From a phage: 47,773 nucleotides of DNA. Both the position numbers and the translations under genes were made by a program. The stretch lies in the NCBI GenBank assembly GCA_036604865.1, contig GCA_036604865.1_4856.1. One strand, given 5' to 3'. Of this stretch, positions 2,752 through 35,236 are shown in pieces. Under the pieces are notes generated by a model. It was given only the letters and a program-made list of their open reading frames with translations, searched no databases and was not told where the DNA came from. Every line of letters begins with the position of its first letter. Within the stretch, counting starts at the first letter, position 1.

Positions 2752-3561
2752 ATGAAAACACTCAGCAAAATCTATTCAGACAAAGAAACGCGCAACGGCA
2801 TCGCTGTTAACAAAACCTATCTCGTGCCAGTGGAGCAAATATATCTGGAGCCGGGATACAACATCCGTGAAGCAGATGAGCAGCATGTGGAATATTTCGC
2901 GCAGTGCTGGGAATCAGGTCAGCCATTGCCAGCATTAACAGTTATTCCAGATGAGAAGGGAATCCGCATTCTTGATGGGCAGCATCGCTATCTCGGCGCA
3001 CTGCGTGCCATTGAGCGTGGCGCGCCAATCGCTCGCATTGAGTGTAAGGATTTCACTGGAGATGAGGCGGATAAAATTGCCTTCATGGTGTCATCCAGTC
3101 AGGGCAAGCAGCTTGACCCGTTTGAACGTGCAAAGGCTTACACGAGACTGAAAGGCTTTGGCTGGACGAATGAAGAAATCGCCAAGAAGGTGGGTCGTTC
3201 AGTATCTGACGTGCAGATGCATCTGTCACTGGGTGATGTGCCTGCGGAAGTAAAAGCGCGAATCAGTGCCGGGCAAATCAGCTATGCAAATGCCGTAGCA
3301 GTAACGCGTGAACATGGCGATGATGCGGTAAAAGTTATCGACGAGGCAGTCGAAGAGGCCAAAGCACAAGGCAAGGATAAGGTCACTGCAAAAGTGCTCA
3401 AGTCGAAAAAGATTAAGCCAGTAGACCGCCTGATTGAGTTATTGAAGCCAGCCGACCATGTAATTCTCCCCGCTGGTCATGTAGTGGCTGAGGACGAGGA
3501 ATTTATTCAGATTCCTGTTGCTGATATTCACGAGGTTATGGCAATTCTGGAGAAGATGTGA
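2752..3561 (+). CDS. ParB-like nuclease domain protein
   Basis: 269 aa; ILDGQHRYLGALRA matches the ParB N-terminal domain core (DGxHR); SD aagga upstream. Confidence 0.6.
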   Translation: MKTLSKIYSDKETRNGIAVNKTYLVPVEQIYLEPGYNIREADEQHVEYFAQCWESGQPLPALTVIPDEKGIRILDGQHRYLGALRAIERGAPIARIECKDFTGDEADKIAFMVSSSQGKQLDPFERAKAYTRLKGFGWTNEEIAKKVGRSVSDVQMHLSLGDVPAEVKARISAGQISYANAVAVTREHGDDAVKVIDEAVEEAKAQGKDKVTAKVLKSKKIKPVDRLIELLKPADHVILPAGHVVAEDEEFIQIPVADIHEVMAILEKM

Positions 3562-5549: not shown

Positions 5550-5636
5550 TTAAATATCCCCATGAGTTAATGCTGGTTAATTGTAGCACACTAGTTACTA
5601 TCGTGGTAATATAAAACCAAATTAGGAGTGACTTTT

Positions 5637-6443
5637 ATGAAAACAAGAAAAGAAGCCGCGCAAGAAGCAAGGGTTGCTGGACTGAAGCAATTTGTGTGTG
5701 AATGGATTCCATGCTCCGTATGTGGTGGAACTGTGTTTTTTACAGCATCAGGCGGATGCAAGCATTGCGTATACGAAAGAACGAGAGCAAGAAGATCTAC
5801 TGCTGAATACAAAGAAAAGATGAAGCAGAAAAACAAAGAAGAGTGGTTAAAAAATAAAAACAACCCAGAATTCAAGGCTATTAAGAAAGAAAGAGATAGG
5901 GAGTTTCACAAGAAATACAAAAAAAGATTAAGCTCAGACATAAAAAAGATGGAGGAATTTCTCAGAAGAAGAAGGGATGCGTACCGTAAATGGTATTACT
6001 CTGAGAAAGGCAACAAAAAGGCTCTGGATAACGTCAAGCAATGGCAAAAGAAACACCCCCACCACGTGTTCCTAAGGAAGATGCTTGAAAGAATTGATGT
6101 GAGGTTGTCTGACGTTGCCATTGATAAAACCGTTGATGATGTGCTTGGTTATACAAAAAGTGATTTTATAAAACACATAGAGTCAACTATGGAGCCATGG
6201 ATGAGCTTTGATAATCGTAGTTGCTGGCATATAGATCACATACTTCCAGTGGACTGGTTTGTAAAAAACAACCTTGTCTACCCAGAACTGGTGAATTCAC
6301 TACATAACCTCAAAGCTGAGCCAGCAGAGTTCAACTGGAAGAAAAACAGGAAGTGGCTGCGCAAGGATATGACGCAATGGGAATTCTGCTACATGCTGCA
6401 ATATATGGTGTATGGTGAAATCAGGTATAAAGAAGGGGGCTAA
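5637..6443 (+). CDS. HNH homing endonuclease
   Basis: HNH core CWHIDHILPVDWF; N-terminal Cys cluster; ATG at 5637 after SD aggag; lone plus-strand gene inside the head block. Confidence 0.65.
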   Translation: MKTRKEAAQEARVAGLKQFVCEWIPCSVCGGTVFFTASGGCKHCVYERTRARRSTAEYKEKMKQKNKEEWLKNKNNPEFKAIKKERDREFHKKYKKRLSSDIKKMEEFLRRRRDAYRKWYYSEKGNKKALDNVKQWQKKHPHHVFLRKMLERIDVRLSDVAIDKTVDDVLGYTKSDFIKHIESTMEPWMSFDNRSCWHIDHILPVDWFVKNNLVYPELVNSLHNLKAEPAEFNWKKNRKWLRKDMTQWEFCYMLQYMVYGEIRYKEGG

Positions 6444-26462: not shown

Positions 26463-26735
26463 ATGAGCAATCACGGTGTATTATTAAAGCGCAAATTAAA
26501 CAAACATGGTCGTGGTGCTGGGTGGGTTGCATCATCAAAATCAACCACTGGATACTACGGTGTTGATTACCACAAGGCATCAAAAAAATTCAGAGCGAGA
26601 GTGATGGTACTCAAGAAAAGATATGAGCTTGGTATGTTTGAAACGGCAGAGGAAGCAAACGCTGCTGTTTTGAGAGCCAAGGAATGGTTATCAGAGAATC
26701 CTCATGAGAAATTTGAAACAGAGTACGAGGTCTAA
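26463..26735 (+). CDS. AP2-domain DNA-binding protein
   Basis: GYYGVDYHKASKKFRARV...GMFETAEEANAAVLRAKEWL fits the AP2 fold pattern; first gene of the plus replication module. Confidence 0.55.
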   Translation: MSNHGVLLKRKLNKHGRGAGWVASSKSTTGYYGVDYHKASKKFRARVMVLKKRYELGMFETAEEANAAVLRAKEWLSENPHEKFETEYEV

Positions 26736-28289
26736 ATGATTACAGCTCAAGACATCTTCAACGAAGCAAGGGAATTAAAAGTATCTCCTGCTCGCGTTGC
26801 CTTCCATCATGGCATGACACCAAGCTCAAACATGTGGCTTGACATCAAGGAAGGTAAGGAGCGTGATGTAACGTACTCAGAAACAGAACTGACCAGTGAG
26901 CACCGGACTGATTTACTGTCTCGTTATGCAATCTCAGCTGCTCGCGCCGTTCAGTTCCCAATAAATACATCGTTCATGCATTTACTTGGGTGCGTTGCCA
27001 GCGCAATGACGAGAAACTTTAGCGTTGAGTATTACCATTCAGAGCTTCCAGTTTCTCTTTACGTGGTTACTTCTCAGCCTCCATCAGCTGGGAAAACCGC
27101 CATTAACTCAATGCACATGAATCCGGTGAAGATTGAATATGACAACCTTTCCAAAAAGATGGAAAAGCAGATCATAAAAATAAATCTTCGCATTGAAGAA
27201 CTGATGAAGGCATACAAAGAGGCCAGTAATCAGAATGCAAAGGCACTAATCGGCGACGATATTGCTCGGGAAAAGGAGAAGCTGGAAGAGCTTTATACGA
27301 TTACATATCCACTGACGGACGCAACTCCAGAGGCTGTTCAGCATCAGGCCATTCATGAAGGTGGTTTTTTTAATCTGATAAGTGACGAGGCAAGCGTTCT
27401 TAACACCTGCCTTGGCCTCTCTTACGGAAAAGAAGGTGGAAAGGCAAACGCCGAAGTCATCCTGAAGGGCTGGGATGGCGGATTCATTGGTTCTGCTCGT
27501 GTTGGTCGTGGCGTTTCATCTGGTTACGTGCTTGGAAACATAAGTGTGATTGCGCAGGATGAAAGTATTGATGCCATTCTTGCCGCTGGCGACAGGGGGA
27601 ACGGTCTTTCTGAACGTTTCCTGATGTTGCGAGAGCAATCGATGCTTGGCTATCGCGAACACTGGGACATGGTTAATGACTGCCCTGTAAGCAAGCCAAT
27701 GCCAGACAGCTTGAGGTCGGAATATGCAAGATTTATACATAATGTTGTGTCAGCAGAAAAAACAAAACTGACGCTTCACAATGACTCAGCAAGAATGATC
27801 GGCCTGTTACGAAATCAGTGGGAGAAAAACTTCCTTCCCGGCGGTAAGTGGGACCACGTTCTTCTTCGTGGTGCAATGGGTAAAGCTGATAAGCAAATAA
27901 TCCGCCTGGCAGCAATATTTCACGCTGCTGAAAACTGGTGCGATGGAGGAAGACGGTCAAAAATTATCGGTGAAAATGAAATTAGTCGCGCTATCAGTGT
28001 TTATGACGCACTGACAAAAACATTCACCGACGCCGTGGAATCAAATGGATATGCTGGCGAGCGTTCTGAATTTGATGTTGTTGCCGAAAAGCTACGCTCT
28101 GCCGCTCAGAAAGGAAAAACAAACGTAACGGTGAAGTGGCTTTATGATTCACTTAAAAACGTTCGACCATTCAAAGGGATACCTAAAATTTATGACCGAC
28201 TCAGATCAAGTGTATTGCCATCACTTGAAGAGGATGGTTACTGCGTTTTTATTGGTAATACTGTCCACATTAATCCGAGGTTGAAATGA
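26736..28289 (+). CDS. replication-module protein, possibly DUF3987-like helicase/primase-associated
   Basis: 517 aa; P-loop-like SQPPSAGKT; sits beside primase and helicase genes; family assignment from memory, unverified. Confidence 0.5.
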   Translation: MITAQDIFNEARELKVSPARVAFHHGMTPSSNMWLDIKEGKERDVTYSETELTSEHRTDLLSRYAISAARAVQFPINTSFMHLLGCVASAMTRNFSVEYYHSELPVSLYVVTSQPPSAGKTAINSMHMNPVKIEYDNLSKKMEKQIIKINLRIEELMKAYKEASNQNAKALIGDDIAREKEKLEELYTITYPLTDATPEAVQHQAIHEGGFFNLISDEASVLNTCLGLSYGKEGGKANAEVILKGWDGGFIGSARVGRGVSSGYVLGNISVIAQDESIDAILAAGDRGNGLSERFLMLREQSMLGYREHWDMVNDCPVSKPMPDSLRSEYARFIHNVVSAEKTKLTLHNDSARMIGLLRNQWEKNFLPGGKWDHVLLRGAMGKADKQIIRLAAIFHAAENWCDGGRRSKIIGENEISRAISVYDALTKTFTDAVESNGYAGERSEFDVVAEKLRSAAQKGKTNVTVKWLYDSLKNVRPFKGIPKIYDRLRSSVLPSLEEDGYCVFIGNTVHINPRLK

Positions 28290-28557: not shown

Positions 28558-28588
28558 AAAAACCCTCCATATGGAGGGTTTCTTTTAT
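28558..28588. terminator. bidirectional rho-independent terminator (accctcc-atat-ggagggt then T-run)
   Basis: Hairpin 28563-28579 between convergent genes. Confidence 0.55.
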
Positions 28589-29538
28589 CTGCTGACTGAC
28601 ATTTTTTCTATCAACTCGCCAGCGTCATAAATCTTTCTCCTGATTCGCTTCGCCATCATGATAGTGTCCGCATCATCAGGCAGCATCACCGGTAGTCCTG
28701 CGTTTTCCGCAGCGCAAAGTTCATCAAATTTATAATTAACTATGCAGCGCAATCTCGCTTTCACCTCATCGCTAACCGAGCGCACAACCTCCCACATGTT
28801 TTCTGGCGACCAGCAGCACCATACGTGAGCGCCAGTGAAGTAATGGCACTTCCACGCGTCGGCATAATCAGATACCAGGTAAATGAACTTCCCGTTATCT
28901 TCTCCGATTGGGCTTATCGCGCCGCGCGTGAGTTTGCCGTTGATGGCTGAGTCCTTGTTGTACCCTGCGCGGAAAAACGTTTTGAATGAATCACCATCCA
29001 TGCCAATGAATGCCACGTTGCACGGCTTCATTGTGTCAGCTCGCATCATCTCAACCGCAATAAGCTCTCCAGATTTACCTCTGGCAACATTAACGTCGCA
29101 ACCAATACCATTTATCAACGTCCACTCATTCATCTCGACACGCGTCGTTTTAGCCATGATTGCGGCGACTTCCTGTTCGGTGATGAAGTCATCGTTGTAA
29201 TTTATCTTCGGCATCTCCTTCCTGATTGCCTCCAGCTTTTCGCATGGGTGCATGTTCAGGAATCCTCCCAGCGCCTCCAGTGCTTCAGGAAAGCTCATGC
29301 CTGAAAGTTTCATCAGCCAGTTCATGCCGCTGCCGGAGCCGCACTGATTGCAGATTGCACCGCCATCGCCTTTTGTTTCTAAGTTGTCATCAAAGCGATA
29401 TCTGTCTGTTCCACCACAACTTGGACATGGCTGGTGCTTACCATTGAAAACTCTGCTATCCACATTGACGATAGACATGATGGCGGCCTGCCAATTTCCG
29501 AGCATTTTTGGCTCAATGTCTTTCCAGTCGTATCTCAT
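28585..29538 (-). CDS. DNA primase (zinc ribbon plus TOPRIM-like)
   Basis: C4 zinc ribbon HQPCPSCGGTDRYRF...CNQCGSG then acidic motifs (FIGMDGD); ORF track begins with TTG at 29601, Met at 29538 preferred. Confidence 0.6.
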   Translation of the reverse strand: MRYDWKDIEPKMLGNWQAAIMSIVNVDSRVFNGKHQPCPSCGGTDRYRFDDNLETKGDGGAICNQCGSGSGMNWLMKLSGMSFPEALEALGGFLNMHPCEKLEAIRKEMPKINYNDDFITEQEVAAIMAKTTRVEMNEWTLINGIGCDVNVARGKSGELIAVEMMRADTMKPCNVAFIGMDGDSFKTFFRAGYNKDSAINGKLTRGAISPIGEDNGKFIYLVSDYADAWKCHYFTGAHVWCCWSPENMWEVVRSVSDEVKARLRCIVNYKFDELCAAENAGLPVMLPDDADTIMMAKRIRRKIYDAGELIEKMSVSR

Positions 29539-29613
29539 AAATTGACCCTTGATTGTTGGTGTAGATTGAGTATAAGCTAACTGACGTAGAAACATCAACA
29601 AAGGTTAGTTGCT

Positions 29614-31539
29614 ATGACGCATAAAATAGACAAGATGATTTCAGAGATTGACATTAACTTACTGAAATCCTGCTTGGATACTGGTGATATCGAGCCAAGA
29701 CCCTATCAGTGGTTGATATATAAGTTAACTGGTGATGTGATTCGTCATTATGTTGGCCCGAGCTATGTAACGGCAAGTGTAGGTAGTGGAAAGTCACTGA
29801 TGATTGCCATGATAGCAAAGCGTTTTCAGGAAATGGGATATTCAGGGATGATTTTATCAAGACAGGGAGAAATAGTGGAGCAGGATGCGGAAGAGCTATG
29901 GTCGCTTGGTGTTAGAAACTCGCTATTCAGTGCTTCGTTGGGTAGGAAAAGTTCTACTTATCCAATAATCTGTGGTTCTGAGGGTACTGTTATAAATGCT
30001 TTGTTTGATAAAAAGGATGAGTCAGGGAATGTTATTGCAAAAGGTGCGCTCTCTGACTTTTGCCCAAGATTCCTGCTTATCGATGAAAATCATATGGTTA
30101 ATGACATTGATGTTGTTAATAATGGTGATACGCAGTATGCAGTGATAATTAATGAGCTAATGAAAAGGTGCAAAGATAAGCACGGCCATGAGTTGAGAAT
30201 AATAGGTTATACAGGCTCACCGTTTCGCGGAACTACATCAATAAAAGGCGCTTTCTGGAAGAAGGAGATTATCAACATAGACACCAAATACATGGTTGAA
30301 AACGGTTTTCTTGTGCCAACAATTTTTGGTCTTCATGATGTTGATAGTCTGCATTATGACCTTTCAGATTTTCATGGTTCAGATGTTGATGGCACTCAGG
30401 ACTTTACCTCCGAGCAGCTCAAGCAGATGCAAAAAGAAATTCTTGAGCAAGGTACGTTGACGCAGAAAATCATGCTCAAGGTTATGGAGTTGACTAAAAA
30501 CAGAAACGGCGTACTGATTACATGTGCTGGTAAAAAACATTGTCAGGAGGCGGCAAAATACCTACCAGAAGGGAGTTATTCAATAGTTACAGAAGATATG
30601 GGGTCAAAAGCCAGAAGGAAGGCTCTAAAAGATGCATACACCGGGCGCAAAAAATTCACATTCCAGATAGCCGCCCTTACCACTGGCGTAAATATACCGT
30701 TATGGGATACGAGCTGCATATTACGAAAAATAATGTCGCTCACCCTTCTTGTTCAGTTGCTTGGTCGCGGAATGCGCCTGCTGAAGAAAGAGCAAATTGA
30801 TGCCGGGTATCATAAAGAAGACCATTTGGTTCTTGATTTCTCTGGCACGATGTTTGAGCTTGGTCAGTTATATGAAGACCCAATTCTGGAAGAAGCTGAA
30901 GCGCAGCGTTCAAAACGCATTGGTGAACAGGTTCCGTGTCCGAAATGTGGAACAATGAACAGCCCATATGCGCGCCGCTGCATTGGCAAAGATGCATTGT
31001 CGACAGATGGTAGATGCGAAGAGTTTTTCAGTTACATTCGCTGTGGATTTGACAAGCACGGAATCCGTATTTTTGATGATGGCTGCGGCACTAAAAACGA
31101 CCCTACAGCTCGCTATTGCAGACATTGCGATCACGTTTTGCGTGACCCGAATGCGGCACTGAATGAGCGTGCGTATACAGATAATGAGTGGGCTGATGTT
31201 ATGGATTTCAAAGTCCAGTTAACGAAGGATGGAGATGGGATTTTGTATCGCTACTGGATTAATCGTTGTGATGGCAAAGAGGGATGGGCTAATGAGGTTT
31301 TCTATCCATACGGCGGCGCAACTCACATGAAAAACATGTTCAAGGCGAAGGCCATCTTCCCTCACCTTGATGATAAATCAATGGCTGGGAGAATCCTGAA
31401 ATGCCAGAACGCAAAACAATTCATGATGTATGCGGGGTTAATTAAAGCGCCAAAACGCATCACGCATCGGATTAATGATAAAGGTCGCGACATTATCCAC
31501 AGAAAAGAATTTAAAGGAGAACAAAGTGAAGCAGCTTGA
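29614..31539 (+). CDS. superfamily 2 DNA helicase (DExH-type)
   Basis: Walker A ASVGSGKS, motif II LLIDENH, C-terminal Cys-rich zinc-finger-like region; 641 aa. Confidence 0.75.
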   Translation: MTHKIDKMISEIDINLLKSCLDTGDIEPRPYQWLIYKLTGDVIRHYVGPSYVTASVGSGKSLMIAMIAKRFQEMGYSGMILSRQGEIVEQDAEELWSLGVRNSLFSASLGRKSSTYPIICGSEGTVINALFDKKDESGNVIAKGALSDFCPRFLLIDENHMVNDIDVVNNGDTQYAVIINELMKRCKDKHGHELRIIGYTGSPFRGTTSIKGAFWKKEIINIDTKYMVENGFLVPTIFGLHDVDSLHYDLSDFHGSDVDGTQDFTSEQLKQMQKEILEQGTLTQKIMLKVMELTKNRNGVLITCAGKKHCQEAAKYLPEGSYSIVTEDMGSKARRKALKDAYTGRKKFTFQIAALTTGVNIPLWDTSCILRKIMSLTLLVQLLGRGMRLLKKEQIDAGYHKEDHLVLDFSGTMFELGQLYEDPILEEAEAQRSKRIGEQVPCPKCGTMNSPYARRCIGKDALSTDGRCEEFFSYIRCGFDKHGIRIFDDGCGTKNDPTARYCRHCDHVLRDPNAALNERAYTDNEWADVMDFKVQLTKDGDGILYRYWINRCDGKEGWANEVFYPYGGATHMKNMFKAKAIFPHLDDKSMAGRILKCQNAKQFMMYAGLIKAPKRITHRINDKGRDIIHRKEFKGEQSEAA

Positions 31540-31942
31540 CAGCGGTATATGGGTATTTGATAGCGGTTATCGTGGTGAGTGTCCGAAAGAAGAGACTGAG
31601 CAGATGATGTACGGTTGCTGGATGGACTATCAATTCCCAAATGCAATATGGTTTCACGTTCCAAACGAGACGGGAACAAAAAGCGGACCTCAGTTCGTTC
31701 TTAAACGCCAGAAAATGGGCGTAAAACGAGGCGTTAGCGATGTAATCATACTAAGTAATGGTGTAGCTCATTGCGGAGCAGTAATGGAGCTTAAGCGAGC
31801 TGACAGAACAAAATCAAAGGTATCAAAAGAGCAAGCTACGTTTCTTGAGAAGGTGGCTGATCAAGGAAAGTTCGCGGCCATAGCCTACGGCGCTGAGCAA
31901 TTAAAAAAAGCTACACTTTTCTATTTTGGAGTTGACAAGTAA
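31526..31942 (+). CDS. VRR-NUC domain nuclease
   Basis: PD-(D/E)xK-type core GVSDVIIL...MELK; GTG start at 31526 after SD aggag (ORF track 31475-31942). Confidence 0.55.
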   Translation: MKQLDSGIWVFDSGYRGECPKEETEQMMYGCWMDYQFPNAIWFHVPNETGTKSGPQFVLKRQKMGVKRGVSDVIILSNGVAHCGAVMELKRADRTKSKVSKEQATFLEKVADQGKFAAIAYGAEQLKKATLFYFGVDK

Positions 31943-31984
31943 ATCATACCACTTTACAATCCAATCATACCAAAGAGGTGTCGC

Positions 31985-32488
31985 ATGGATAAAGAATATG
32001 TAGATGAATGGCTTGTTGTTAATGCGGATGAGGGCACTGTTTTTTGGCGAAAGAGTAGAGGGCTAGCGAAAGCAGGTAATTCTGCAATACATAAACATGA
32101 AATCACTTCCAGAGGAGGAGCGAAATACAAAGTTATATCATTCGGAAGGAGACAGTGGTTATTACATAGATTTATCTGGACGTATGTTAACGGTGAAATA
32201 CCTGATGGAATGGTTATCGATCACATTGATGGAGACACAAGCAATAATTCAATAAAAAACTTAAGAATTGCCAGTAGGTCTGAGAGTTCATTTAACAAAG
32301 GGATGTTTAAAAATAACACATCTGGCGTAAAGGGTGTTTATTGGGATAAGAGAAATAAGAAGTGGATGGCGTACGGAAGAATAAATGGAAGGATGAAAAA
32401 TCTTGGAAGGTATTCCTCAATTGAGGATGCTAGAAATGCCGCAGATACATTCAGGCGAGTTAATTTTAAGGAATTTTACAGGCGGTGA
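31985..32488 (+). CDS. HNH homing endonuclease with AP2 DNA-binding domain
   Basis: HNH_3-type motif VIDHIDGDTSNNSIKNLR followed by AP2-like GVKGVYWDKRNKKWMAYGRINGRMKNLGRYSSIEDARNAA. Confidence 0.65.
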   Translation: MDKEYVDEWLVVNADEGTVFWRKSRGLAKAGNSAIHKHEITSRGGAKYKVISFGRRQWLLHRFIWTYVNGEIPDGMVIDHIDGDTSNNSIKNLRIASRSESSFNKGMFKNNTSGVKGVYWDKRNKKWMAYGRINGRMKNLGRYSSIEDARNAADTFRRVNFKEFYRR

Positions 32489-32491
32489 ATA

Positions 32492-33430
32492 ATGAGAGTT
32501 TATTTTAACAATGAATTAAGCAATCATGATTACCACGCCGACACAGAGCACATTAATGGTTCTGGTTTGTGGAACATTTATGACAGATGTCCCGCAGCTT
32601 GGCGCTACAAAGACGAAGAAGATGAGCAATCAAAAGCTCTTGTCTTCGGAACTGGCAGCCATACAGCCCTGCTTGAACCTGAGCGTTTTGATGATGAATA
32701 TGCTCGTATGCCAACCAAAGAAGATTTTGGTGATGACCTGCTTGTTACTGTAAGCGATATGAACTCATGGGCGAAAGAGCGTGGCATCAAGGGACTTTCA
32801 GGGAAGTCGAAATCTGAGGTAATCAAAATCATTCAGGCGACTGGCGAACAGGTGAAGATTTACGATGTTATCCGTGAAGAAGCTGAAAAAGCCGCAGCGG
32901 GAAAGAAAATGCTGGAAGGTGGTGATTATGACGCCATTCAGCAAATGCGTGCTGTAATCCACGCAAACAGCTATTACAGCAGTCTTCTTGCTGGTGCTTA
33001 TGCTGAGGTGTCAATTCTTGGTGAGCTTAATGGAGAGAAAGCAAAGGTTCGTTTTGACTGTCTGACAAAAGGTGGTGACATCATTGACTACAAGACAGCG
33101 GTTAGCGCCAAGCCTGATGAGTTTTTCCGACATGCTGCGCGACTTGGCTACTTTATGAAAATGGCGATGCAACACGATATGTTTGTTGCAGCATATGGTC
33201 ACGCGCCGCGTTCGGTAAATCTTTTAGTTCAGGAAAAGAAAGCTCCATTCATTCCTGCGTTAATTCGATTAACGGAAGAGCAATTGCATATAGGTCGAAT
33301 TCAGTTGAATGGTGCTATGGAAATTTACAAGGCGTGCAAAAAAGCCAATTCATGGCCGGGTTACTCAATGGGTAATCCCGTCATCGAAATGGAAACGCCT
33401 GAATGGTTCAAGAAGCAATTTAATTTATAA
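32492..33430 (+). CDS. PD-(D/E)xK recombination exonuclease (RecE-like)
   Basis: ALVFGTGSHTALLEPERF and DCLTKGGDIIDYKT motifs; adjacent to recombination ATPase and SSB. Confidence 0.55.
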   Translation: MRVYFNNELSNHDYHADTEHINGSGLWNIYDRCPAAWRYKDEEDEQSKALVFGTGSHTALLEPERFDDEYARMPTKEDFGDDLLVTVSDMNSWAKERGIKGLSGKSKSEVIKIIQATGEQVKIYDVIREEAEKAAAGKKMLEGGDYDAIQQMRAVIHANSYYSSLLAGAYAEVSILGELNGEKAKVRFDCLTKGGDIIDYKTAVSAKPDEFFRHAARLGYFMKMAMQHDMFVAAYGHAPRSVNLLVQEKKAPFIPALIRLTEEQLHIGRIQLNGAMEIYKACKKANSWPGYSMGNPVIEMETPEWFKKQFNL

Positions 33431-33447
33431 TTAGTGAGGTGATGCAA

Positions 33448-34488
33448 ATGGGTATTCTTAATATTAAACCAGCAGAGCGTTCCGGTTCTCGCGTGGTCAT
33501 CGGTATCTCAGGTCAGTCTGGTAGCGGAAAAACATATAGCGCACTTAAGCTGGCGCGAGGCATGGTTGATTCACCAGAAGAAATCGGATTCCTTGACACT
33601 GAGAATGGTCGCGGTCGCCTGTACTCAAACATCCTTGATGGTAAATTCCTGCACGCTGACATGTATGCACCATTCAGCCCTGCACGTTACCGTCAGGCCA
33701 TTGAAGAATTTCAGGCTGCAGGAGTTAAGGTTCTCGTTATTGATTCAGGTTCACACGAATGGGAAGGGGAAGGCAGTTGCACGGAGATTGCTGAAAAGCC
33801 ACTGCTTAACGGAAAAAAGATGGCTGACTGGAAGCGCGCCAAAGCTGAACACAAGAAGTTCATGAACGCCATGCTGCAAAGCAATATGCATATCATTGTC
33901 TGTCTTCGCGCTCGCCAGAAAACTGACTTCGCAAACCCGAAGGAACCTGTATCACTTGGATTGCAGCCAGTGTGCGAGAAAGATTTCATGTTCGAGATGA
34001 CCGTGAGCATGATGATGCACGATGGAGGCAAAATTCAGGAGTTCACCAAACTACCAGAAGAACTACGCCCAATCTTCTTTGAGTCTGGTCGTGAAAGTGT
34101 TCGTCATGGATACATTGGCGAGGCTCACGGTCGCGGACTCATCAAATGGGTGGACTCTGGCGTTAAAGTTGACGAAGAGTTTGAATCATGGCGATCACGA
34201 CTTCAGCTTTCAGCCGCAAAAGGCATGGAAGGCTTGAAGGAAGAAGCAAAATCAATACCTGACAACCTGAAAGATAAGATTCGCGCAATCTGGCCTTCTC
34301 TGGCCGCTTCTGCTGCAGAATACGATCGCATTGAGTCTTTCATCAATGATGAGCAATTATCTCCTGTGGTAATAACTCCGCAGGATAAATTCAACCCTGC
34401 AAAACTGGCTAAACCACAACATCATCAGCCAGAACAGCAGGAAGAAACAAAAACCGAACATAAACCAACTCCAATTGAAGGATTTTAA
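33448..34488 (+). CDS. RecA-like recombination ATPase (Sak4-like)
   Basis: Walker A GISGQSGSGKT, Walker B LVIDS; ATG at 33448 after SD tgagg (ORF track 33439). Confidence 0.55.
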   Translation: MGILNIKPAERSGSRVVIGISGQSGSGKTYSALKLARGMVDSPEEIGFLDTENGRGRLYSNILDGKFLHADMYAPFSPARYRQAIEEFQAAGVKVLVIDSGSHEWEGEGSCTEIAEKPLLNGKKMADWKRAKAEHKKFMNAMLQSNMHIIVCLRARQKTDFANPKEPVSLGLQPVCEKDFMFEMTVSMMMHDGGKIQEFTKLPEELRPIFFESGRESVRHGYIGEAHGRGLIKWVDSGVKVDEEFESWRSRLQLSAAKGMEGLKEEAKSIPDNLKDKIRAIWPSLAASAAEYDRIESFINDEQLSPVVITPQDKFNPAKLAKPQHHQPEQQEETKTEHKPTPIEGF

Positions 34489-34491
34489 TAA

Positions 34492-34986
34492 ATGGCACGC
34501 GGCGTAAATAAAGTAATTATTGTCGGCACTCTCGGTAACGACCCTGAAGTTAAATATTCTGCATCAGGATCTGCAATTGCTAATCTTTCTGTTGCAACAT
34601 CTGAGCAGTGGAAAGATAAACAAACAGGAGAAAAGAAAGAACAGACTGAATGGCATCGCGTAGTCATCTTCGGGAAACTTGCAGAAGTTGCAGGAGAATA
34701 CCTTCGAAAAGGTTCGCAGGTTTACATCGAAGGACAACTTCGCACTCGTAAATGGTCTGACAGCAACGGCATTGACCGATATACAACGGAGATTGTCATT
34801 CCGCAGATGGATGGCGTAATGCAGATGCTTGGCGGTAAGCGTGATGATTCTGGTCAGCAACAACACCAGCAATCAGGACAACAACCGCAACGACAGCAAC
34901 GACAGCAACAGCAGCCACCAAAACAACAAATCCCACAAGGAGGCAATGAGCCTCCGATGGACTTCGACGATTCAATACCATTCTGA
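34492..34986 (+). CDS. ssb: single-stranded DNA-binding protein
   Basis: OB-fold N-terminus [16 protein letters not shown]...[14 protein letters not shown], Gln-rich linker, acidic tail DFDDSIPF. Confidence 0.9.
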
Positions 34987-35236
34987 TGATAAAACTAACC
35001 CCGCCGAAGCGGGGTTGTGTCACTTACTTACCCGCAATTCCCACCAGTAAAGTTTCGAGGGATTCAATCGTTACTCCAGTCTGACTAGAAGCAGCTCACC
35101 TGATTCATTCATAATATTACCGTAGTTGTAAAGTTAGGAACCCAAATAGGGTCGTATCATAAGATGACTCTTAGATAATACTTAGCATGATGGAGTACAC
35201 CCAGACATAGTGTCTGGTATTACCTGCGAGGTAACT

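Follow-up and report, generated by a model that had tools for sequence, protein, structure and literature searches.

The closest described relatives of the gene block analyzed here, which occupies positions 29614-34986 of a 47,773-nucleotide phage contig (GenBank assembly GCA_036604865.1, contig GCA_036604865.1_4856.1; the whole contig is hereafter called the window), are the modules of phages PA73 and HK620 that pair a Sak4 ATPase with an SSB, a protein that binds single-stranded DNA (Lopes et al. 2010, PMC2896510; Hutinet et al. 2018, PMC5928155). In PA73, Sak4 is encoded along with an SSB (DUF669), a Cas4-type exonuclease, and a superfamily 2 (SF2) helicase carrying a zinc ribbon, and the protein shows annealing activity in vivo (PMC2896510). 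The annealing performed by HK620 Sak4 is stimulated by the adjacent SSB via the last six SSB residues (PMC5928155). The occurrence of RecE-like genes beside Rad51-like recombinases, accompanied by an SF2 helicase, a primase, and ssb, was already noted by Lopes et al. (PMC2896510). Further points of comparison are provided by the RecET system of the Rac prophage and by lambda Red, in which a 5'-3' PD-(D/E)xK exonuclease gene adjoins a strand-pairing gene; by E. coli RadD (YejH; PDB 6JDE/7R7J), which has no stand-alone helicase activity on branched DNAs and speeds RecA strand exchange (PMC8887467); and by the stand-alone VRR-Nuc resolvases psNUC (PDB 4QBL), stNUC, and saNUC (Pennell et al. 2014, PMC4103454), of which psNUC is dimeric, binds and symmetrically cuts Holliday junctions, and has an E-PD-ExK-Q active site (PMC4103454).

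The block in the window probably represents an early-expressed cassette for homologous recombination and branch processing, to which the following five genes are assigned:

29614-31539, plus strand: RadD-like SF2 (DExH) helicase or translocase with two zinc ribbons, 641 amino acids (aa), identified by phmmer, Pfam, and phrog_16

31526-31942, plus strand: predicted VRR-NUC nuclease, a probable junction or branch resolvase, 138 aa, GTG start (profile match to 4QBL; phrog_824, E 2e-40)

32492-33430, plus strand: predicted RecE-type PD-(D/E)xK 5'-3' exonuclease, 312 aa (Pfam DUF3799; phrog_412; profile match to 3H4R)

33448-34488, plus strand: AAA_24 ATPase of the RecA/Rad51 fold, 346 aa (Pfam AAA_24, E 4e-12; phrog_1366, E 2e-83; the Sak4-like phrog_124, E 2e-9)

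34492-34986, plus strand: SSB with an oligonucleotide/oligosaccharide-binding (OB) fold and the C-terminal tip MDFDDSIPF, 164 aa (Pfam SSB, E 2e-38, 131 bits; phrog_44, E 2e-56)

The matches of the module genes in Pfam, PHROG, and PDB have E-values spanning 1e-12 to 1e-93, far beyond chance, and the gaps between genes other than the helicase/VRR-NUC pair measure 3-42 nucleotides (nt). The open reading frame (ORF) listing, the inspection of starts, and the annotated orthologues all agree with the coordinates that a first-pass annotation of the window had given for these genes. Its calls of a DExH helicase with zinc fingers, a VRR-NUC nuclease beginning at a GTG inside the 3' end of the helicase gene, a RecE-like PD-(D/E)xK exonuclease, and an SSB are borne out by the matches described below. 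GenBank labels for the genes in other phages are usually helicase, exonuclease VIII, recombinase, and SSB.

The reading of the exonuclease and the ATPase as partners relies on gene linkage across related phages. In total, 80 related viral loci were collected from IMG/VR via the ATPase, and their neighbouring genes were scored with profiles built in this analysis; adjacency was counted wherever the sequence extends at least 3 kb upstream, which left 61 loci. A RecE-like gene lies directly upstream of the ATPase gene in 51 of these 61, while the remaining 10 encode a nuclease directly downstream, seven belonging to phrog_4763/5715 (exonuclease families or weakly related to them) and three being PDDEXK_1-FtsK fusions. 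The ATPase gene adjoins a nuclease gene in every locus (61/61), and the nuclease family varies. Because the adjacency is constant while the nuclease families swap, the pair is best described as a two-component system of exonuclease and recombinase, which supports well the pairing of exonuclease and recombinase in the first-pass reading (an exonuclease-plus-annealase set) and agrees with the same functional layout in PA73. In Vibrio phage 1.123.O, a myovirus as judged by its baseplate genes, a YqaJ-type exonuclease is the partner of the ATPase, and the replicative helicase is DnaB. The RadD-like helicase and VRR-NUC accompany the ATPase in 21/54 loci, including some in which the ATPases are only 44-51% identical. 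As a separate observation, three loci (L032:8861-11020, L033:4438-6558, and L048:9074-11233) encode, after the ATPase, a protein of 707-720 aa with an FtsK/HerA-type translocase domain; its N-terminal PDDEXK_1 nuclease was detected by Pfam in L032 and L033 only, and such a companion is unusual for an ATPase of the RecA fold.

Compared with the PA73 and HK620 modules, the block shares an AAA_24 ATPase with a RecA/Rad51 core and an adjoining SSB gene whose product has an acidic, aromatic C-terminal tip; the further overlap with PA73 lies in a PD-(D/E)xK exonuclease encoded in the same block along with an SF2 zinc-ribbon helicase. However, the ATPase is longer (346 aa vs 226-245 aa), with a C-terminal helical domain and an acidic Phe-ended tail, and the exonuclease belongs to the RecE type, in place of a Cas4-type enzyme or an Abc2-modified RecBCD. 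Moreover, HK620 Sak4 is a member of phrog 2872, whereas the present ATPase falls in phrog 1366 and resembles the validated Sak4s weakly in profile comparisons.

The exonuclease scores 91.6 bits against Pfam DUF3799 (E 8e-26; cut-off 26) and matches phrog_412, exonuclease VIII, with an E-value of 7e-93. Single-sequence phmmer searches of the PDB sequences with the exonuclease and with the ATPase returned noise or a marginal match to 3L0A only. A profile of 30 exonuclease representatives was drawn from a library of 50% representatives, as the ordinary homologue listing gave only sequences at least 87% identical, and it aligns over its full length with the RecE catalytic domain 3H4R (E 1e-43; profile positions 12-307 vs chain residues 4-262). 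These 30 diverse homologues show almost no variation at H57, D189, and D199 and have K201 in the consensus DYKT; the four residues fall on the GTAFH, RPD, and MDVK columns of RecE, i.e., the catalytic residues are kept on alignment. The protein is homologous to the catalytic domain of RecE over its whole length, and its gene adjoins that of the putative strand-pairing protein, as in RecET and lambda Red; it is without the long N-terminal region of RecE. Unlike in RecET and lambda Red, its partner is an ATP-binding RecA-fold protein instead of a Rad52-fold annealase (RecT, Beta), and the phage module adds a helicase, a putative resolvase, and an SSB. The exonuclease also differs from the RecE catalytic domain in an insertion of ~45 residues at about residues 75-125 (window 32714-32866), whose similarity to Rho_N (E 3e-3) and to the SAP domain of Ku70 (E 0.47) is weak and which may have added a helix-extended-helix unit for binding DNA.

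What is observed are homologies, motifs, and synteny, and the activities in the following scheme are all inferred from them. The RecE-type exonuclease would resect double-strand ends in the 5'-3' direction, and the phage SSB would cover the exposed 3' single strand. The AAA_24 ATPase would then be recruited to the SSB-coated single-stranded DNA via the SSB tip, as in the case of HK620 Sak4, and would pair or anneal the strand with its complement, which could lie in a terminal redundancy, at a replication fork, or on a sister genome, for example; the outcome would be primers and templates for the host polymerase as well as concatemers for packaging. Subsequently, the RadD-like motor would drive or clear branched intermediates, and a dimeric VRR-NUC would cleave junctions and branches ahead of packaging. 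On sequence and synteny, an annealase-type recombination module is the likely identity of the block, with a putative annealase activity of the ATPase. Recombination-dependent replication is plausible, since the window has no DNA polymerase gene: across its whole length, no profile match to a polymerase and no ORF big enough to encode one were found. The biggest non-structural products of the window are two helicases, and the phage appears to be a virulent siphophage without a DNA polymerase gene of its own.

The helicase is most closely tied to RadD. Its sole phmmer match among the PDB sequences is E. coli RadD (6JDE; E 8e-34; query residues 29-516 vs chain residues 6-462), and the alignment extends from the first motor lobe across both zinc ribbons. 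The Pfam models Helicase_C, ResIII, and Zn ribbons are matched, as is phrog_16 (E 2e-76), and the expected motifs are found at GSGKS (residue 57), DENH (157-160), CPKC (442), and CRHC (502). Among 25 phage homologues, K60 and D157-E-N-H160 are kept in 24-25. The pocket in which RadD binds the C-terminal tip of SSB is bordered by Arg21, Arg49, and Arg145 (PMC10238739). The equivalent of Arg21 is Arg in 22/25 phage homologues and that of Arg145 in 13/25, the window protein included in both; the equivalent of Arg49 is Gln, and Arg occurs two residues earlier, at the RadD-47 position, in 15/25. It is thus plausible, judging from these alignment columns, that an SSB-tip pocket is retained in the phage helicase. 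In summary, both motor lobes, the DExH motifs, the zinc-ribbon region, and the Arg21 and Arg145 equivalents are shared with E. coli RadD. By contrast, the phage-encoded protein is ~26% longer at the C-terminus, a region without similarity to RadD, has Gln for Arg49, and is encoded by a gene apparently coupled in translation to that of VRR-NUC.

This coupling is suggested by a 14-nt overlap between the two genes, which is annotated identically in phages VSt472, HC6, and swi2, together with a Shine-Dalgarno sequence (AAAGGAG) located 6 nt before GTG 31526. A start of VRR-NUC at ATG 31475 (155-aa ORF) was rejected because the Shine-Dalgarno sequence and the lengths of orthologues favour GTG 31526. 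As a single sequence, the protein scores 20.7 bits against Pfam VRR_NUC (PF08774), below the cut-off of 23.8, which sets it apart from known VRR-Nucs; two distant homologues bear a precomputed PF08774 match. The family profile of 19 sequences matches psNUC (4QBL) with an E-value of 3e-6, and E48, D72, E88, K90, and Q103 are invariant across these 19 sequences. Like psNUC, stNUC, and saNUC, the phage protein is a single domain of ~140 aa with an E-(P)D-ExK-Q motif. Unlike in these resolvases, PD is replaced by SD, and a conserved N-terminal DSGYRGxC lies outside the 4QBL match. The VRR-NUC gene also has a history of its own, as its product is ~70% identical to its relatives, compared with ~92% nucleotide identity for the helicase gene, and positions 31726-31873, i.e., the central and 3' part encoding the catalytic core, give no DNA-level alignment with relatives that match the helicase gene at ~92%. 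This divergence marks a mosaic junction beside the insertion of a homing endonuclease gene and may reflect co-conversion during homing. Elsewhere in the window, an endonuclease VII-like protein (5628-6443; phrog_1035, E 1e-24) constitutes a second candidate junction resolvase.

The mosaic history of VRR-NUC bears on the possibility that the block holds two independent and uncoupled early units, in which the helicase and VRR-NUC would serve fork reversal, branch clearing, and packaging clean-up, while the exonuclease, ATPase, and SSB would carry out end-directed recombination. The helicase and VRR-NUC are missing from 33/54 loci that keep the exonuclease-ATPase pair, and unrelated genes (HNH, a 397-aa ORF, and small ORFs) are tolerated between the two halves. 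However, the order helicase, VRR-NUC, exonuclease, ATPase recurs at 44-51% ATPase identity and in a myovirus; PA73 also unites an SF2 zinc-ribbon helicase with an exonuclease, an SSB, and Sak4; and E. coli RadD, in addition to binding the tip of SSB, acts on RecA intermediates (PMC10238739, PMC8887467). Two separate units thus appear somewhat unlikely, and a single annealase-type module is preferred.

The nature of the ATPase is the point at which the block departs most from the described modules. Its ORF opens at GTG 33439; homologues and a GAGGTGA Shine-Dalgarno sequence favour ATG 33448. The protein consists of a core of ~225 aa, a helical C-terminal domain, and a disordered acidic tail ending in ...PIEGF, with the Walker A motif GSGKT at residues 25-29 and the Walker B motif VLVIDS at 95-100. 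It scores 46.9 bits against Pfam AAA_24 (cut-off 27), and the validated Sak4s of HK620 and PA73 score 30.0 and 62.9 bits on the same model. Since both match this model, membership of the ATPase in the Sak4 family holds at the family level, and the profile check for unrelated P-loop families leads back to AAA_24, which it shares with both validated proteins. An AlphaFold (AF2) model computed from a 30-sequence alignment has a mean predicted local distance difference test (pLDDT) score of 82.6; in it, residues 228-303 form a helical domain modelled with confidence, and the tail is disordered from about 304-306 to the end. The top Foldseek matches of this model in the PDB are the RAD51-paralogue chains of BCDX2, followed by RecA and RAD51 (E 3e-7 to 1e-5; template modelling (TM) scores 0.32-0.42), and its neighbours in a viral structure library are proteins labelled "AAA domain" and "RecA-like recombinase". 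The Sak4-like assignment of the first-pass annotation therefore stands as far as the above-cut-off AAA_24 match and the RecA/RAD51 fold are concerned; it does not extend to the core-only class of fewer than 290 residues, to which Sak4 was restricted by Lopes et al. 2010 (PMC2896510).

The hhalign comparison of the ATPase family with E. coli RecA gives a probability of 92% (E 7e-7; 138 columns). The alignment pairs the Walker A motifs, FLDTEN with FIDAEH (which contains the catalytic Glu of RecA), and the Walker B motifs, as well as HEWEGEG with EIEGEIG and FANPKEP with FGNPETT, i.e., segments resembling the DNA-binding loops L1 and L2. At E <= 0.01, no match of the ATPase to Pfam RecA, RecA_C, or Rad51 was obtained, while E. 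coli RecA itself scores 475 bits on the same library. The ATPase is not a canonical core-only Sak4 and, judged by such profiles, aligns better with E. coli RecA than with the validated Sak4s. It shares with bacterial RecA the Walker A motif, the catalytic Glu, the Walker B motif, the L1- and L2-like segments, and a Phe-ended acidic tail. It differs from RecA in having neither RecA's N-terminal helix nor its C-terminal domain, in the absence of a Pfam RecA match, and in the pairing of its gene with an exonuclease gene. A tentative and on balance unlikely possibility is that the ATPase represents an intermediate between core-only Sak4 and full RecA, equipped with L1/L2-type loops, a helical domain of its own, and a Phe-ended tail.

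The family to which the ATPase belongs (phrog_1366) has at least 1900 homologues and 417 phage records, and its tail (window 34357-34488) is a recurrent feature. Among 116 full-length homologues, 91 end in Phe, typically as [IV]-[ED]-x-F; the preceding linker is acidic, with a mean net charge of -4.7 over the last 45 residues, and an FNPA motif is present in 86/116. The tail resembles the SSB tip and also the C-terminus of E. coli RecA (...AETNEDF), some homologues ending in SNEDF or TNEDF. The C-terminal tail of RecA has an autoregulatory role and affects how RecA competes with SSB. An aromatic ATPase C-terminus occurs in 14/21 loci with the RadD-like helicase vs 8/33 loci without it, a statistic that ignores relatedness. 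The ATPase tail might act like the RecA and SSB tips, i.e., either autoregulate DNA binding or dock in the SSB-tip pocket of the RadD-like motor. The ssb gene itself starts 3 nt past the ATPase stop codon.

Several observations weigh against the reading of the block as an annealase-type recombination and branch-processing module. At 346 aa and with an extra domain, the ATPase lies outside the core-only definition of Sak4, and the hhalign alignment of its family with HK620 Sak4 has a probability of 9% and covers the P-loop only, while that with PA73 Sak4 is weak (probability 18%; E 1e-3; 93 columns from the N-terminus to Walker B). Furthermore, phrog_1366 is annotated as "unknown function", and its members carry GenBank names as different as "recombinase" and "replicative DNA helicase". 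Only 15/47 loci showed an adjacent SSB, a count that is probably an underestimate as it relied on a single-sequence query. Of the arginines that frame the SSB pocket of RadD, only two of three are conserved. Lastly, VRR-NUC need not be the resolvase for packaging, since the endonuclease VII-like protein at 5628-6443 is also encoded.

The affinity of the ATPase to RecA raises the alternative that it is a filament-forming, RecA-like strand-exchange protein, with the RadD-like helicase as its accelerator and the RecE-type exonuclease feeding the pair. The far better hhalign match to RecA than to the validated Sak4s, the additional helical domain at 228-303, the Phe-ended acidic tail as in E. coli RecA, the effect of RadD on RecA strand exchange (PMC8887467), and the more frequent aromatic C-terminus in loci with the helicase are all consistent with this. 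Nevertheless, strand exchange by the ATPase is considered quite unlikely: its Foldseek TM-scores are just 0.32-0.42, no Pfam RecA or Rad51 match is found at the above threshold, the N-terminal helix of RecA is absent and RecA_C is not matched, and the association of tail and helicase does not account for relatedness. In addition, HK620 Sak4 together with SSB is incapable of strand exchange (PMC5928155), and annealase systems are the ones that typically show steady pairing with a 5'-3' exonuclease. The assignment of the ATPase as a replication factor, i.e., a helicase loader or replisome organiser for the neighbouring DUF3987 helicase and primase, with the exonuclease serving nucleotide salvage or host DNA degradation, is highly improbable. 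In its favour, the module lies beside the primase and DUF3987 helicase genes, some GenBank homologues are named "putative replicative DNA helicase", P-loop ATPases of similar size often serve as loaders, and Sak4 is reported to be needed for phage replication in S. aureus (PMC5499656). However, the conserved neighbour is a nuclease (61/61), while the primase and the DUF3987 helicase were detected mainly in close relatives; the ATPase-exonuclease pair is kept across phages with different replicative helicases, such as DnaB in Vibrio phage 1.123.O; the fold is that of RecA/RAD51 and not of DnaC/AAA+; and RecE-type enzymes are processive end-resection nucleases. A DnaC-like loader and a DnaB-like helicase were both tried as identities of the ATPase and rejected on its fold and conserved neighbours.

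The module is already present in many public phage genomes, where it is largely annotated, and modules of this type, which combine an exonuclease, a Rad51-like recombinase, an SSB, and an SF2 helicase, have been described since 2010. The long, tailed, RecA-like nature of the ATPase subfamily and the possible link of its tail to the RadD-like helicase were not found described. If the latter reading is true, the phages would possess a RecA-RadD-resolvase system in miniature, self-contained and supplied by a RecE-type exonuclease. The tailed subfamily could also reveal how RecA-core proteins acquire or lose the capacity for strand exchange. In practical terms, the analysis provides cleaner annotation for widespread O-antigen-dependent enterobacterial siphophages, some of which are candidates for phage therapy, and in whose present annotations the ATPase goes by labels as varied as "hypothetical" and "replicative helicase". 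The trio of exonuclease, RecA-fold ATPase, and SSB is also a candidate recombineering system of an ATP-dependent, SSB-stimulated type that has been little exploited. Neither the practical nor the scientific aspect overturns current understanding.

The surroundings of the five genes, including the insert within the block, contain the following features:

26463-26735, plus strand: small protein of 90 aa with an AP2 domain (Pfam AP2 match under the cut-off, E 7e-4; phrog_35306, E 1e-56)

26736-28289, plus strand: DUF3987 putative replicative helicase, 517 aa (Pfam DUF3987, E 1e-34; phrog_2373 "DNA helicase", E 5e-194)

28585-29538, minus strand: zinc-ribbon DNA primase, 317 aa from ATG 29538, divergent from the module (Pfam Zn_Ribbon_Prim, E 1e-13; phrog_510, E 6e-82)

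29539-29613, no strand assigned: divergent intergenic region between primase and helicase, 75 bp, presumed to be the early promoter region

31932-31960, plus strand: sigma-70-like promoter match, TTGACA-17-TACAAT, 11/12 positions, the best site of the promoter scan within 26-36 kb

31985-32488, plus strand: free-standing HNH + AP2 homing endonuclease, 167 aa (HNH_3, E 1e-18; AP2, E 2e-8; phrog_99, E 3e-53)

34997-35016, no strand assigned: perfect GC-rich hairpin (AACCCCGCCGAAGCGGGGTT), 10 nt past the ssb stop, at the end of the gene block

The zinc-ribbon primase, which the first-pass annotation had placed on the opposite strand just upstream of the module, is found there. Its longest ORF (to 29601) is probably too long, and the start at 29538 is preferred because the orthologues in HC6, VSt472, and swi2 are 954 nt. 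Further upstream, the stop of the gene for the 90-aa AP2-only protein exactly abuts the start of the DUF3987 helicase gene, and an ORF exists at the same place in HC6, VSt472, and swi2. This protein could be a DNA-binding partner, either origin-binding or regulatory, or the remnant of an HNH-AP2 gene.

As for transcription signals, the intergenic region 29539-29613 contains a weak promoter-like site at 29598-29569 on the minus strand only. The stronger match at 31932-31960 overlaps the final codons of VRR-NUC, within the HNH cassette and just upstream of the HNH gene; as a lead, it is a candidate promoter for that gene and for the exonuclease, ATPase, and ssb genes downstream. The promoter scan shows no enrichment, with 16 sites against 19.6 expected from shuffles, and the terminator scan is mildly enriched (13 vs 8.4), so that operon boundaries remain inferred. 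The hairpin at 34997-35016 may terminate leftward transcripts and not those of the module itself, as a T-run is present on its minus strand only.

The five genes are encoded on the plus strand as the first-pass annotation had it, but their description as consecutive overlooked a sixth gene, that of the HNH-AP2 homing endonuclease (31985-32488), between VRR-NUC and the exonuclease. Homology with relatives ends at ~31935 and returns at ~32484-32489, and the insert of ~550 bp (about 31936-32488) contributes the last codons of VRR-NUC, the 11/12 promoter match, and the HNH-AP2 ORF. This allele is otherwise present only in Salmonella phage 64795_sal3 (93.8%). At the same site, HC6 has a different HNH-AP2 gene, while VSt472 and swi2 have a 58-aa ORF and no HNH; among the relatives, further HNH genes lie between the primase and helicase genes or between the ATPase and SSB genes. 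We read the HNH-AP2 gene as a sporadic, selfish mobile element outside the recombination machinery.

The window as a whole is that of a Skatevirus-like Salmonella/E. coli siphophage. The 6.6-kb region of the module matches 186 GenBank phage records at ~85-92% nucleotide identity, the best matches (~91-92%) being Escherichia phages HC6, 6947, HC8A, and ZCEC08 and Salmonella phage VSt472 of the genus Skatevirus. Skatevirus-like relatives are small siphoviruses of 46-48 kb with tailspikes (PMC11990801). Apart from the module, a ParB-like protein (window 2752-3561; phrog_1033, E 9e-91) is encoded in this apparently virulent siphophage.

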